DNA of 64,000 nt, from NCBI GenBank assembly GCA_963766735.1, contig CAVYBU010000027.1:32001-96000 (forward strand), written 5' to 3'. The notes under the pieces were generated by a model. The model did no database searches, was not told the DNA's origin, and saw only the letters and a list, made by a program, of their open reading frames with translations. The DNA is from an uncultured Chloroflexia bacterium (GTDB lineage: Bacteria > Chloroflexota > Limnocylindria > Limnocylindrales > CSP1-4). Below are positions 35,244-40,927 of the stretch, one piece after another (the stretch's first letter is position 1; each line of letters starts with the position of its first letter). Position numbers and translations under genes: made by a program.

Positions 35244-35348
35244 ATGAGTACGCGAGTGCGGCGCCTGGTGGTCGCGTTGGCACCGGCCATCCCCGTGCTG
35301 CTGGTCCTGGGCGGTGTCGTCGCCGAGGGGGCGAAGAGATGGCTCTGA
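35244..35348 (+). CDS. Small hydrophobic peptide, 34 aa, ending GAKRWL (absent from the ORF track)
   Basis: GAGGAGG SD, then ATG, encoding MSTRVRRLVVALAPAIPVLLVLGGVVAEGAKRWL*. Hairpin downstream at 35358-35387. Confidence 0.72.
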   Translation: MSTRVRRLVVALAPAIPVLLVLGGVVAEGAKRWL

Positions 35349-35532
35349 CGCGGGCGGGGCGGCCAGGCGTCTGCGAGCATGGCCGCCGCTGGTGGCGCGC
35401 GGGCGCCAGGAGTCGGTCAGAGTAGTCAGGCAAAGGGCTCGAGCCGGAGGCTCGGGAGCCGCGGAGTCTGGTCCGGGCGGCAGCCAGTCGTCCGCCACGT
35501 GGGCTTGGGCCGATCTCCCGCATCATTAGGGG

Positions 35533-36090
35533 ATGGACACCCCGCGCCTCTTGAGCCACACCGCGGTCGCCAGGATCGAGACGGGCGGCCGCATGACGGT
35601 GGCCGCCGCCTGGGGAATCCTCGTCCTGCTTGTCGCGGGCTGCGACGCGGGCGTCCCGGTCGCCTCGCAGCCGATAACGCCGGGCGCCAGTGATAACCCG
35701 CGCGAGGTGAACATCATTGCCCGCGACTACGCCTACACGCCGGCGGCGCTGGACCTGGTGCCCGGCGAGACCGTGATCCTGCACGTGGTCAATGGAGGCC
35801 TGGCCGTCCACGAGGCGGTCATCGGGGACATGGGGACGCAACTGGCCTGGGAGGCGGCGGAGGCACCGCTCGCGGATTCGCCTCCCGGCCCCACGCCGGT
35901 CGTGTCGGTGCCGCCGGGTTTCGACGGCGTCCGGGTCGTGGTGGAGTCCGGTGAGCGGGTGGACGTGGTCTGGACAGTGCCGTCGGACGCGGCCGACGAC
36001 CCGTCCGGGTGGTTCGTTGGGTGCCACATCCCGGGGCACTGGGACAAGGGCATGGTCGTGCCTGTCCGGTTCGCCGCCACGGGCGGGTGA
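35533..36090 (+). CDS. Cupredoxin (blue copper) lipoprotein
   Basis: Lipobox VAGC and type-1 copper site VHEAVIG...CHIPGHWDKGM. Confidence 0.85.
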   Translation: MDTPRLLSHTAVARIETGGRMTVAAAWGILVLLVAGCDAGVPVASQPITPGASDNPREVNIIARDYAYTPAALDLVPGETVILHVVNGGLAVHEAVIGDMGTQLAWEAAEAPLADSPPGPTPVVSVPPGFDGVRVVVESGERVDVVWTVPSDAADDPSGWFVGCHIPGHWDKGMVVPVRFAATGG

Positions 36091-36231
36091 CGGGAGGCTG
36101 GCCGGACCGCCCCCTCGTGCGCCCAACGGGGGTCGCGTGGGGTACGCGCGGTGGTACGCTCTGGGTGTCGCGCGCGAGGCGCGGTTCAGAGAGTTCGACG
36201 AGCAGCCGATGAATCAGGAGATCCCAAGACC

Positions 36232-36519
36232 ATGACGTACGTCATCGCCGAGCCCTGCGTCGACGTCATGGACACCGCATGCGTGTCCGTCTGCCCCGTG
36301 GATTGCATCCATTTCGAGGAAGGGGTTGACCGCAAGCTCTTCATCGATCCCAACGAGTGCATCGATTGCGGCGCCTGCGAGCCCGAGTGCCCCGTCAACG
36401 CGATCTTCCCGGAGGAGAGCCTCCCGGCCGAGTGGGCCGGCTACACCGCCGTCGAGGCCACCTGGTTCACGGACAAGGCCGCGGCCCGCGTCGCGCTGGA
36501 AGCCCTCAAGCCCGCCTGA
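36232..36519 (+). CDS. fdxA: 7Fe ferredoxin ([3Fe-4S]/[4Fe-4S])
   Basis: MTYVIAEPCVDVMDTACVSVCPVDC...CIDCGACEPECP, with SD AGGAG. Confidence 0.93.
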   Translation: MTYVIAEPCVDVMDTACVSVCPVDCIHFEEGVDRKLFIDPNECIDCGACEPECPVNAIFPEESLPAEWAGYTAVEATWFTDKAAARVALEALKPA

Positions 36520-36727
36520 GCCGTAACGCGCCGGCACTCGTGGCCGGCCGACGAGCGCATCCGGCCCCGCAGGCAACTGCGGGGCCGTCTTGGTGCCGGC
36601 GCCGGAACCCTTGCCTTGTGGCCGCGTCCCGGATCCCGGCCGCGTCCGGCCGGGCAGGCCCCGGCGGCGACGAGCCGACCCGAACGGCCCTGACGGGCCG
36701 GGTGCCCATCGCCCGTAGACTGGCGTG

Positions 36728-38506: not shown

Positions 38507-39388
38507 ATGTCTCCCCTCTCGAGCGCCACCATCGCGACCGTTGGTTCGGGGGTCATGGCCGAGGCCATGGTCGCCGGGCTCCTGCGCGGCAGCCTCGTCA
38601 CGCCAGACCAGGTGGTCGCCAGCCACCCGCGCGCGGAGCGCCGGGCAGCCCTCGAGGCCACCCACGGGATCCGCGTCGTCGTCTCCAACACGGAGGCCGT
38701 GATCGGCGCGGACGTCGTCATCCTCGCCGTCAAGCCGCAGACGCTCGCCAAGGTCGGGCGGGAGATCGGCCCTGCCCTCCAGCCCGGCCAGCTGGTCCTC
38801 TCGGTCCTTGCCGGACCCACGACCAGGGCCCTGGTCGCCACGCTGGGCCACGATCAGGTCGTGCGGGCCATGCCCAACACGCCGGCCCGCATCGGCAGCG
38901 GCATGACGGTCTGGTACGCGACGCCCGCCACCACCGCGGCCCAGCGCTCGCAGGCGAAGACCCTGCTGGGCGCGCTGGGTGCGGAGCTGGAGGTCGAGGA
39001 CGAGAAGTGGGTCGCGATGGCGACCGCGGTCTCGGGCACCGGCCCCGCCTACGTGTTCCTCGTGATGGAGGCCATGATCGACGCGGCCGTCCACCTGGGC
39101 TTCCCGCGCCACATTGCCCACGACATCGTCATCGAGACCCTCGAAGGCAGCACCCGCTTCGCGAAGCAGTCCGGCGACCATCCGGCAGTGCTCCGGAACA
39201 TGGTCACCAGCCCGGCCGGCACCAGCGCCGCCGCGATCCATGAGCTGGAGTCCGGCCGCCTGCGCACGGTGCTGTCGGAGGCCGTCTGGGCCGCGTACCG
39301 CCGCACGGTCGAGCTGGGCGACGAGCTCGACGAGCAGGTCGGCGCCGCCCCGGCGAAGCACGCCAACGTGGACCGTTCGCCCCGCTGA
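38507..39388 (+). CDS. proC: Pyrroline-5-carboxylate reductase
   Basis: GSGVMA, AVKPQ, RAMPNTP, SGTGPAY and VTSPAGT. Confidence 0.96.
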   Translation: MSPLSSATIATVGSGVMAEAMVAGLLRGSLVTPDQVVASHPRAERRAALEATHGIRVVVSNTEAVIGADVVILAVKPQTLAKVGREIGPALQPGQLVLSVLAGPTTRALVATLGHDQVVRAMPNTPARIGSGMTVWYATPATTAAQRSQAKTLLGALGAELEVEDEKWVAMATAVSGTGPAYVFLVMEAMIDAAVHLGFPRHIAHDIVIETLEGSTRFAKQSGDHPAVLRNMVTSPAGTSAAAIHELESGRLRTVLSEAVWAAYRRTVELGDELDEQVGAAPAKHANVDRSPR

Positions 39389-39678
39389 GCCCGGACCCGC
39401 GCGTTGTGCCACGCTGCGTGGGGCCCGAGAACGCCGCGCGACGGCGAAACGGGCACCTCACGTAGAGGCAATCGCGAACCCCAGCTTCAGGCACGATCCC
39501 CACCCGGGTGCCGACCGGCCCCTCAGCTGGCGACCGAGGCTCCCGGTCGCGGAGGCGCGGCCGCGCTATCCTCGCGCAACAGGCGGCGCCCCCTCGCCGG
39601 GTTCGACGCCGCCTGCGATCCGACGTCCCGTGCGGAAAACCCCTGGGCCTGCCAACCCTCCACCACACCGAGGCCTCG

Positions 39679-40656
39679 ATGCCCGACCGATCTGCCTCCG
39701 GCGACATCGCCGAACGCGCAATGCGTACCGCGCTCCTGGCGCTCTCCCGCCGCAAGTCGCTCGGCCGGCTCGCCACGCGCGTGCCGGTCACCCGCCCGAT
39801 GGTTCGCCGGTTCGTGGCCGGCGAGTCGCTCGAGGAGGTCATGCCCGCGATCGGGCGCCTGCGCGACGCAGGGATGGGCACGACGGTGGACGTCCTGGGC
39901 GAATCCGTGACCGCGGAGGAGGACGCTCGTGCGGCTGCCGGCCGCTACCTCGACGTGCTGGACGCTCTCGCCGCCGGCGGGCTGGATCGCAACGTCTCGC
40001 TCAAGCCCAGCCAGATGGGGCTCGCAATCGACCCGGCGCTGGCTCGCGAGAACATCGCCGCGATCGTGGCAAGGGCCGTGGAGACGGCGGCCTTCGTCCG
40101 GATCGACATGGAGGACCACACCACCACCGATGCCACGCTGGGGCTCTGGCGGGACCTGCGCCCGACGGGCTGGGCTGACGGCGGCGCGGATGTCGGGCTG
40201 GTGATCCAGTCGGCGCTGCGCCGGAGCGACGCGGACATCGAGGCGATCATCGAGGCCGGCGGGCGCGTGCGGCTGTGCAAGGGCGCCTACAGGGAGCCTG
40301 CCGCCGTCGCCTGGCAGGACAAGGCCGAGGTGGACGAGGCGTACGAGCGCCAGATGCTCCGCCTCATGCGCGCGGGTCGCTACCCGGCCCTCGCCACGCA
40401 CGATGTCCGCCTGATCAAGCGTGCGGTCGGTGTCGCGACAGCCGAGGGCATCGCCCGGGACTCATTCGAGTTCCAGATGCTCTATGGCGTGCGGCGGGAC
40501 CTGCAGGAGCAACTGGCCGGCGCGGGCTGGCGGGTCCGCGTGTACGTCCCGTTCGGCGGACAGTGGTACCCGTACTTCATGCGCCGCCTTGCCGAGCGCC
40601 CCGCAAATGTGTCGTTTCTGCTCCGGAACATGTGGCGGGAGCGCGGTCGAGGCTGA
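39679..40656 (+). CDS. Monofunctional proline dehydrogenase
   Basis: RFVAGE, RIDMED, RLCKGAY, ATHD, FQMLYG and YFMRRLAERPAN. Confidence 0.95.
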   Translation: MPDRSASGDIAERAMRTALLALSRRKSLGRLATRVPVTRPMVRRFVAGESLEEVMPAIGRLRDAGMGTTVDVLGESVTAEEDARAAAGRYLDVLDALAAGGLDRNVSLKPSQMGLAIDPALARENIAAIVARAVETAAFVRIDMEDHTTTDATLGLWRDLRPTGWADGGADVGLVIQSALRRSDADIEAIIEAGGRVRLCKGAYREPAAVAWQDKAEVDEAYERQMLRLMRAGRYPALATHDVRLIKRAVGVATAEGIARDSFEFQMLYGVRRDLQEQLAGAGWRVRVYVPFGGQWYPYFMRRLAERPANVSFLLRNMWRERGRG

Positions 40657-40772
40657 GGGCGGCCGCCCCTATTCGCCAGCGGCGCTGACGGCGGCCGGCA
40701 CTGACCGCAGCGCAACCTGTGAGGTGGGCGAGTGAGGTGGACGAGGACCGCCCGGGATCGCCGGGAATCCAA

Positions 40773-40831
40773 GAGCCGCCGGGATACTCCGGCGGCTCAG
40801 GCCTTGGCGGTGGACAGGCAGGGAGTGCCTG
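40773..40831. terminator. Two stem-loops between proline dehydrogenase and the small peptide gene
   Basis: GAGCCGCCGG-N6-CCGGCGGCTC (40773-40798) and CAGGCA-N5-TGCCTG (40815-40831). Confidence 0.6.
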
Positions 40832-40927
40832 CTACCAGCGCTTGGCTCCGTCGAGCATGAAGCCGAAGGCGGCGATCATGCCCATGAAGATCGTGGCCCG
40901 CTGAGCGTACGACTTGAGCGTTGTCAT
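40832..40927 (-). CDS. Small hydrophobic peptide, 31 aa, ending GAKRW
   Basis: GAGG SD, then ATG, encoding MTTLKSYAQRATIFMGMIAAFGFMLDGAKRW*. Codon third positions are strongly GC. Hairpins follow the stop immediately. Confidence 0.75.
   Translation of the reverse strand: MTTLKSYAQRATIFMGMIAAFGFMLDGAKRW

Follow-up and report, generated by a model that had tools for sequence, protein, structure and literature searches.

Introduction

Small single-pass accessory membrane proteins such as KdpF, CydX, AcrZ and MgrB, of about 30–50 residues with one helix, bind to a larger membrane protein, which they stabilise or tune and with which they often share an operon. Precursors of C-terminal peptide pheromones are known from Gram-positive bacteria (the Phr/Rap, PapR/PlcR and SHP/Rgg systems), and type I toxins such as Ldr, Fst and PepA1 are hydrophobic peptides of about 30 residues with a charged or aromatic C-terminal end. 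To our knowledge, annotation systematically overlooks small membrane proteins, and next to nothing is known of them outside model bacteria. Here we analyse two micro-open reading frames (ORFs), p1 and p2, on a 64,000-nucleotide stretch of DNA from an uncultured Chloroflexia bacterium (the window: positions 32001–96000 of contig C27, 71% GC). They belong to a new, solidly supported and lineage-restricted superfamily of one-helix micro-proteins, in which the paralogous types A (p1), B (p2), B′ and C carry an invariant R-W near the C-terminus and have co-evolving tails.

Two intact genes with a common C-terminal motif

The host genome (G000; 3,619,335 bp in 35 contigs, 70.6% GC, assembly completeness 94%) was scanned in six frames. 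An initial annotation of the window had reported two micro-peptides with a common [DE]GAKRW end, and their coordinates (Table 1), translations and motif codons (GAG GGG GCG AAG AGA TGG in p1, GAC GGA GCC AAG CGC TGG in p2) read exactly as it gave them. p1 has a basic N-terminus (R-x-R-R), an apolar helix of about 20 residues and the ending E-G-A-K-R-W-L. p2, 5.5 kb away, has N-terminal K/R residues, an apolar helix of about 15–16 residues with a face of small residues, and the ending D-G-A-K-R-W. The GC content at codon positions 1, 2 and 3 (0.74/0.51/0.83 in p1 and 0.44/0.47/0.91 in p2) looks coding-like, as in real genes of this genome. GAKRW itself occurs three times genome-wide, about chance level by a rough estimate from composition; the pattern [DE]G[AGS][KR][KR]W followed by zero to three residues ends only two ORFs, p1 and p2. 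A candidate third member on contig C19 was rejected, as it lacks a start codon and is apparently the end of a different frame.

Short ORFs are abundant in 70% GC DNA and GAKRW alone is found at chance rate, as would be expected if p1 and p2 were non-functional ORFs conserved by chance or within non-coding elements. This explanation is scarcely credible in view of the orthologs: all 86 distinct coding sequences from the fetched loci are open, with starts and Shine–Dalgarno (SD)-like tracts, their invariant amino acids are accompanied by synonymous change, and parallel replacements proceed via different codons. From 40 loci, 30 ORFs were extracted under a start rule; 28 begin with ATG and two with GTG (in two of the 30 the start is probably set too far upstream), and most are preceded by GGAG, AAGG or GAGG tracts, judged by eye. 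Given this conservation, the pair is far beyond chance, and p1 and p2 are intact, real genes. One metatranscriptome run (X20), available as contigs that cannot show transcription, contained 9% of the sampled words. Its contigs derive from relatives, because they are mostly 90–95% alike; they give depth in the bin 35114–35327 and none over 40678–41105.

Tails that change in step

Both paralogs are present in 37 genomes, and in 36 of these their terminal five residues are the same. Five of the 37 have a motif other than GAKRW, and in four of these both paralogs bear the same variant: HARRW, SGKRW (two genomes) and TAKRW. The discordant case, L082, has SAKRW versus GAKRW. Two further genomes were added, one concordant (G002, HARRW) and one discordant (G212, GGQRW versus SGRRW, the A-type hit being weak at E 0.02). 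Combined, the pentapeptide is identical in 37 of 39 genomes, including five of the seven with a variant motif. Genomes with variant motifs group into clades.

The nucleotide sequences bear out the proposal that p1 and p2 are dispersed paralogs, conserved as proteins and not recently duplicated: the motif codons differ between the paralogs, and none of the 37 pairs is identical over the 15-nt motif. Variants likewise use different codons in the two paralogs, for example ACA GCC AAG CGG versus ACG GCG AAG CGC. Since no pair is identical and the variants differ in their codons, short-tract gene conversion is an unlikely cause of the shared tails; the case against it is weaker in the SGKRW lineage, where 14 of 15 nt are alike. 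The tails have changed in parallel at least three times independently, which points either to one partner that recognises both peptides or to a symmetric contact between them.

Residues that are invariant vary synonymously, with four codons for G, three to four for A and five for the A-type R. The motif R is encoded by CGC in 52 of 52 B-type genes and mostly by CGA in the A-type. Over the whole peptide, the pooled ratio of non-synonymous to synonymous polymorphism (pN/pS) is below 1, but only moderately so, at 0.59 for the B-type (n = 52) and 0.80 for the A-type (n = 34), in a rough sorting that counted several B-type sequences among the A-type.

Conservation and range

Of the 24 other genomes of the genus, 22 gave a match to the p2-type; none of 16 genomes of a small-genome sister family did. 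Matches to p1 were weaker, yet they lie 5–10 kb from p2 on the same contigs. At the level of the order, every match at E ≤ 1e-3 fell within the genus (17 of 17 genomes). G-A-K-R-W is invariant in all 25 orthologs first aligned. In the larger A-type alignment (A3, 33 rows) R and W are invariant while A and K are conserved at 90% or more; in the B-type alignment (A4, 47 rows) R30 and W31 are invariant, and the positions constrained in p2 besides the tail, K5, R10, A11, L15 and A19, reach at least 90%.

Anchoring on proline dehydrogenase yielded 80 loci, 56 of which have a B-type ORF convergent to the enzyme gene and beyond its 3′ end, mostly by 50–400 nt. They comprise all 47 loci from L068 to L114 and nine more distant ones ending in ...LEA[AG][KQ]RW. 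A B-type ORF was not seen in the other 24 of the 80, some of which end before the downstream sequence. The same syntenic backbone runs throughout, with CtaG, PALP, cupredoxin lipoprotein, binding protein, methyltransferase, ProC, proline dehydrogenase, HpcH and EamA. One 4.9-Mb assembly (G656; L103, L104, L268, L273) has two B-type copies (…QTAKRW and …DTAKRW) and two proline dehydrogenase loci, which may reflect two strains binned together or a duplication.

A profile search of 1.84 billion representative proteins returned 46 at E ≤ 1e-3, of which 45 have a family-like segment; nearly all of the 46 are 30–36 residues long or have a miscalled upstream start. P0039, a false repeat protein, was rejected. 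P0042, of 115 residues, is B-type-like over its last 25 and possibly comes from a chimeric contig, and P0022 begins like a B-type protein but continues past the motif for 60 unrelated residues, owing to a frameshift or an error. Across 401 Chloroflexota genomes the B-type profile gave 10 hits (the host genome itself, eight more from its family and one from a sister family within the class) and none in 81 other Chloroflexota families. A superfamily profile run on 121 genomes of the class gave 22 hits, in family f1 (15 of 35, plus the host) and family f3 (6 of 40), with none in f4 (0 of 39) or f2 (0 of 5). Among the genomes searched, the superfamily is restricted to Limnocylindria. In a genome of another Chloroflexota family (G350, locus L293), a stand-alone DUF5317 gene is followed at 139 nt by a 28-residue ORF ending in ...ASGAGIHWT, a possible distant member with H replacing R.

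An operon link to DUF5317 in relatives

In other genera and in the sister family, superfamily members occur as tandem pairs, a C-type gene (...GAG[MLV]RW) followed by a B′-type gene (...LEAG[RQK]RW). The first stop and second start overlap or lie no more than 5 nt apart in six of six pairs, which are probably translationally coupled. These pairs are found directly 3′ of a stand-alone gene for a DUF5317 protein with five transmembrane segments. Class-wide, a family peptide ends 190–450 nt downstream on the same strand at 12 of 21 stand-alone DUF5317 loci and at none of 10 loci with long DUF5317-MFS fusions (locus L190, from an unpublished genome, was left out of the DUF5317 locus counts). At 10 loci the operon is headed by an upstream gene for a cyclic di-GMP turnover enzyme, a GGDEF+EAL or an HD_5 (HD-GYP-type) protein; the motif scan detects peptides at nine of them, and the tenth (G641) gives a weak hidden Markov model hit. 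Where the upstream gene is DinB_2, GNAT or unknown, peptides are present at none of seven DUF5317 loci. Within the genus of the window, a C-type peptide accompanies nine of the 10 stand-alone DUF5317 loci, one of which has a B′-type as well.

The initial annotation had left several roles open for the peptides, among them a partner of a membrane sensor and a small regulatory membrane protein. Tabulation of neighbouring genes favours these two options, in that superfamily members in relatives share operons with GGDEF-EAL or HD-GYP-type enzymes and DUF5317.

The DUF5317 cassettes lie about 40–50 kb from p2-type genes, adjoining a thiamine pyrophosphate (TPP) enzyme. The host genome has the TPP ortholog on the same contig, outside the window, and the GGDEF-EAL/DUF5317/C-peptide cassette was not found there. 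DUF5317 is present in the host only as two DUF5317-MFS fusions (C10:6590-7033 and C6:191579-192019; loci L164 and L165), with no family micro-ORF beside either. Such fusions form one frame of about 740 residues with MFS_1/MFS_3 and are a common architecture across the class.

DUF5317 (Pfam PF17248) is the sole catalogued family tied to the peptide system and is itself uncharacterised. It has five predicted helices and a conserved loop, and its invariant residues include N92, N99-G-G-x-M-P, D137, N149 and G154-D155. The structure model (pLDDT 90.6, pTM 0.83) had no match in the PDB at E ≤ 0.001 with Foldseek, nor was there a PDB sequence match, and the term DUF5317 was not found in the searched literature, with supplementary files outside the search. 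Two invariant Asp residues 18 apart bear what we take to be a resemblance to signal peptidase II (Peptidase_A8). Membership in that family was rejected: hhalign of A5 against A6 (20 Chloroflexota LspA in the test) gave a probability of 4.3%, Foldseek gave no PDB match at the same threshold, and weak Pfam hits appear in three of 21 members (best E 0.03).

A possible role at the membrane

The uncharged, apolar core has a median length of 20 residues in the A-type and 15 in the B-type. It is flanked by about three K+R on the N-terminal side and by two K+R and about one acidic residue on the C-terminal side, with a conserved Arg 20 residues ahead of the invariant R-W. The positive-inside rule is used to orient membrane peptides and, applied to these flank charges, it leads us to infer an N-in/C-out topology. 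In the B-type, conserved small residues recur every 3–4 positions, which suggests a helix-packing face.

We tentatively propose, with a probability of roughly 0.45, that the peptides are accessory single-pass membrane subunits docking via the xRW end onto a DUF5317-type membrane module. In p1 and p2, at 31–34 residues, a single apolar helix would lead from a basic N flank to [DE]-G-A-K-R-W, which would lie at the far interface of the membrane. They would pack through the conserved small-residue face of the helix, and the xRW end would dock onto a polytopic membrane partner, the DUF5317-type module, for which the two DUF5317-MFS fusion proteins are the candidates in this genome. Docking may in turn tune a membrane signalling or transport complex. 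Because the terminal pentapeptides change together, p1 and p2 would, as dispersed paralogs, use the same docking site. Membrane insertion, DUF5317 binding and any regulatory effect are, like the topology, presumptive parts of this proposal.

Several observations weigh against it. The rule that tails change in step is broken in two genomes (L082 and G212), and constraint is modest over the whole peptide and falls mainly on the tail and a few positions of the helix. At 15–16 residues, the apolar stretch of the B-type is short for a membrane span. Neither p1 nor p2 adjoins a DUF5317 gene, and the 94%-complete assembly has neither a stand-alone DUF5317 gene nor a C-type peptide. In other Chloroflexota classes a similar peptide (...GAGIHWT) accompanies only one of 25 stand-alone DUF5317 loci with room for it; since these classes almost never pair the two, DUF5317 works without peptides. 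Adjacency to DUF5317 would also fit a ligand or substrate relation equally well. As for direct contact between the paralogs, prediction of a p1-type/p2-type complex (A3 + A4) scored 0.03 against a mark of 0.32; with controls that were not folded, this score counts neither for nor against such contact.

The same features can be read in terms of export. The peptides would then be precursors whose basic and apolar parts form an export signal and whose AKRW or KRW end is released and sensed by a membrane receptor, possibly DUF5317, controlling cyclic di-GMP (c-di-GMP) enzymes. We consider this unlikely, though the strongest of the alternatives. In its favour, the layout is n-h-c-like, the A-type apolar region is poorly conserved and contains proline, and every listed variant has A, G or S three residues before W (by eye), as expected before a cleavage site. 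Lock-step change of the pentapeptide resembles ligand–receptor co-evolution, relatives have the genes in operons with signalling enzymes, and in this genome DUF5317 is fused to MFS exporters. Against export, more than 50 species have nearly the same pentapeptide, where a pheromone would usually have diversified, and the B-type helix, which has a small-residue face, is better conserved than a mere carrier would be. At position −3 of the putative site most sequences have D, E or N, residues that signal peptidase I disfavours there. The genes have no RRNPP-type receptor, peptidase-domain transporter or Opp genes beside them, and DUF5317 has no detectable likeness to signal peptidase II.

A more specific version, in which cleavage at the conserved small residue would release a secreted tri- or tetrapeptide (…KRW) to be sensed by DUF5317 modules that gate c-di-GMP enzymes or MFS exporters, appears distinctly unlikely. 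If true, it would be a peptide-to-c-di-GMP signalling route in Chloroflexota without described counterpart, and the lock-step change would be ligand–receptor co-evolution. A Tat signal peptide was rejected for the p1-type, in which R-R is present in 22 of 33 sequences by eye; the stop follows W by 0–2 residues in all 33, leaving no passenger. RRNPP/Phr-like precursors have a cognate receptor gene adjoining the peptide gene, and none adjoins p1 or p2.

Genomic neighbourhood

The genes around p1 and p2 encode a PALP enzyme, DksA/TraR, YHS, cupredoxin lipoprotein, ferredoxin, binding protein, methyltransferase, ProC, proline dehydrogenase, HpcH aldolase and EamA (coordinates in Table 1). No RRNPP-type receptor gene is among these annotated neighbours, and the earlier statement that the window holds no evident receptor or processing enzyme was borne out by their annotation. 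The initial annotation had also described each ORF as alone in a large intergenic gap, which for p1 is true only in part: the gap upstream of it holds previously unlisted DksA/TraR and YHS genes. Together with the ferredoxin gene, these small genes occupy apparent intergenic gaps. The PALP ORF is probably over-extended at its 5′ end, where the DksA-like gene lies in another frame. The ProC–proline dehydrogenase pair places a biosynthetic and a catabolic enzyme side by side, and CtaG, the YHS protein and the cupredoxin lipoprotein give the surroundings of p1 a copper/respiration theme.

Table 1. Coordinates of p1, p2 and nearby features within the window
Feature	Position	Strand	Remarks
PALP ORF (threonine-dehydratase-like)	32995-34587	-	530 aa; family matches start near residue 205
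DksA/TraR C4 zinc-finger protein	34014-34358	-	38 loci in relatives by tblastn
YHS-domain (metal-binding) protein	34461-34679	+	21 loci in relatives by tblastn
p1 upstream block (GTAAGC...AGATAAGCGG)	35120..35150	+	28 A-type flanks, columns at least 70-90% identical
SD-like tract GAGGAGG	35232..35238	+	5 nt before p1 start; read from sequence
p1 (A-type) micro-ORF	35244..35348	+	34 aa, TGA stop
Hairpins and conserved block (CTGCGAGCA.GGCCGCCGCTGGT) 3′ of p1	35349..35425	+	Fold z = -1.4; A-type flank alignment
Lipoprotein-like protein	35533-36090	+	185 aa; LVAGC lipobox, cupredoxin-type C...H...M end, partial CopI match at E 1.6e-10
4Fe-4S ferredoxin	36151-36519	+	67 loci in relatives by tblastn
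ProC and Thermus-type monofunctional proline dehydrogenase	38507-40656		Adjacent, on one strand, conserved across the family
Two hairpins 3′ of p2	40766..40832	-	Fold z = -3.2 against shuffles
p2 (B-type) micro-ORF	40832..40927	-	31 aa, TAG stop
SD-like tract GAGGA	40936..40940	-	Before p2 start
p2 conserved upstream region	40981..41035	-	49 B-type flanks, columns at least 90% identical
CTACGTT block upstream of p2	~40985-40991
Perfect palindrome GGTACCAGTACC upstream of p2	41024-41035		At least 90% conserved in 49 orthologous flanks

Such neighbours raise the possibility that the peptides are local redox partners, p2 anchoring or regulating the peripheral proline dehydrogenase and p1 acting with CtaG, YHS, cupredoxin lipoprotein and ferredoxin. 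The convergent arrangement in 56 of 80 loci, which includes a second clade ending in ...LEAGQRW, would agree with such a role, as would the place of p1 between the YHS gene and the cupredoxin-like lipoprotein gene. We nevertheless regard it as very unlikely. The orientation is convergent and p2 has its own conserved promoter-like region and terminator; moreover, the whole region from CtaG to EamA is syntenic, so that adjacency to redox genes carries little weight. Insertions of 1–4 kb part the p2-type from the enzyme in five loci (L074, L079, L084, L109 and L112) and the p1-type from the cupredoxin in many, while other superfamily members stand in quite different contexts. A leader peptide or attenuator upstream ORF was rejected for both types: p2 is followed by hairpins and then by the convergent proline dehydrogenase, with no same-strand gene to regulate, and in the p1-type insertions often separate it from the downstream cupredoxin.

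Flanking signals

Each ORF had been credited with its own SD and with hairpins after its stop. Purine-rich SD-like tracts do precede both starts, and GGAGG-type tracts also precede A-type orthologs. Hairpins were found 3′ of both stops, with the fold scores against shuffles listed in Table 1. The second p2 hairpin (GAGCCGCCGG...CCGGCGGCTC, then TTGGATT) is conserved, its stem columns reaching at least 90%; it faces the convergent proline dehydrogenase gene and appears terminator-like. From the alignments, the conserved block upstream of p1 is a possible promoter region and the region upstream of p2 a possible promoter plus operator, with the palindrome as a putative regulator site. A simple consensus scan of both regions called no promoter and no terminator. 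The palindrome has no second exact copy in the genome, and a regulon was rejected, the relaxed form GGTAC-NN-GTACC occurring at only three genome sites, one of them here. On the conservation of their flanks, p1 and p2 look like independent transcription units.

These flanks, too, bear on whether the peptides are type I toxin-like, that is, hydrophobic peptides silenced by RNA structure or antisense RNA. Their size, single apolar helix and basic or aromatic C-terminal end resemble type I toxins, a conserved block lies just 3′ of p1, and CUCCUC in the p1 leader can pair with the SD. SD sequestration by this pairing was rejected, as the fold is no better than shuffles (z = −0.9, not significant). 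Toxin loci are patchy, multi-copy and mobile, in contrast to the one copy per type at fixed syntenic positions across the genus and beyond that we observe; with translationally coupled pairs within DUF5317 operons and no Rfam match, we give the toxin explanation very little credence.

Comparison with known systems

The initial annotation could name no characterised family, and searches of Pfam, NCBIfam, Rfam, the PDB and the literature agree. Pfam gave no family for p1 or p2 at E ≤ 10. In NCBIfam the only hit was MamI for p1 (E 0.12, 12.3 bits against a cut-off of 80), in Rfam only RcsR1 (23.7 bits against a gathering score of 60, E 0.25), and among PDB chains only two PsaI (E 5.5 and 6.7), over an apolar stretch of 12 residues. 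The ESM Atlas held only unnamed clusters of hypothetical proteins of 32–33 residues. In the literature covered, to which supplementary files did not belong, GAKRW led only to designed antimicrobial peptides, and proline dehydrogenase combined with small membrane protein or micropeptide led to nothing relevant.

The family is thus well supported and comes from an uncultured, widespread soil and sediment lineage. Three traits are unusual: a tail evolving in step between paralogs, tandem coupled pairs, and a recurrent operon link to c-di-GMP enzymes through DUF5317. It gives a handle on the role of DUF5317, which is widespread and uncharacterised, and on the membrane tethering of soluble c-di-GMP enzymes. 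It also offers a testable case of motif co-evolution, with practical impact limited pending a tractable host or heterologous assay.

The peptides are small, like the Phr, PapR and SHP precursors, and like them combine an N-terminal part resembling an export signal with a short, conserved C-terminal peptide. They differ in having no such adjacent receptor, in a motif that is near-invariant across species, in their Chloroflexota host, and in that the total length of p1 or p2 equals only that of a signal peptide. With Ldr, Fst and PepA1 they have in common a length of about 30 residues, hydrophobicity and a charged or aromatic C-terminal end, as against their stable single-copy synteny and operon coupling with DUF5317. 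They are like KdpF, CydX, AcrZ and MgrB in size and in having one helix, and the C and B′ types stand in an operon with a putative partner. Unlike those proteins, to which they have no sequence relation by Pfam or NCBIfam, their putative partner is the uncharacterised DUF5317, two of the paralogs in the genus stand alone and off-operon, and two or three paralogs share a co-varying tail with an invariant xRW.

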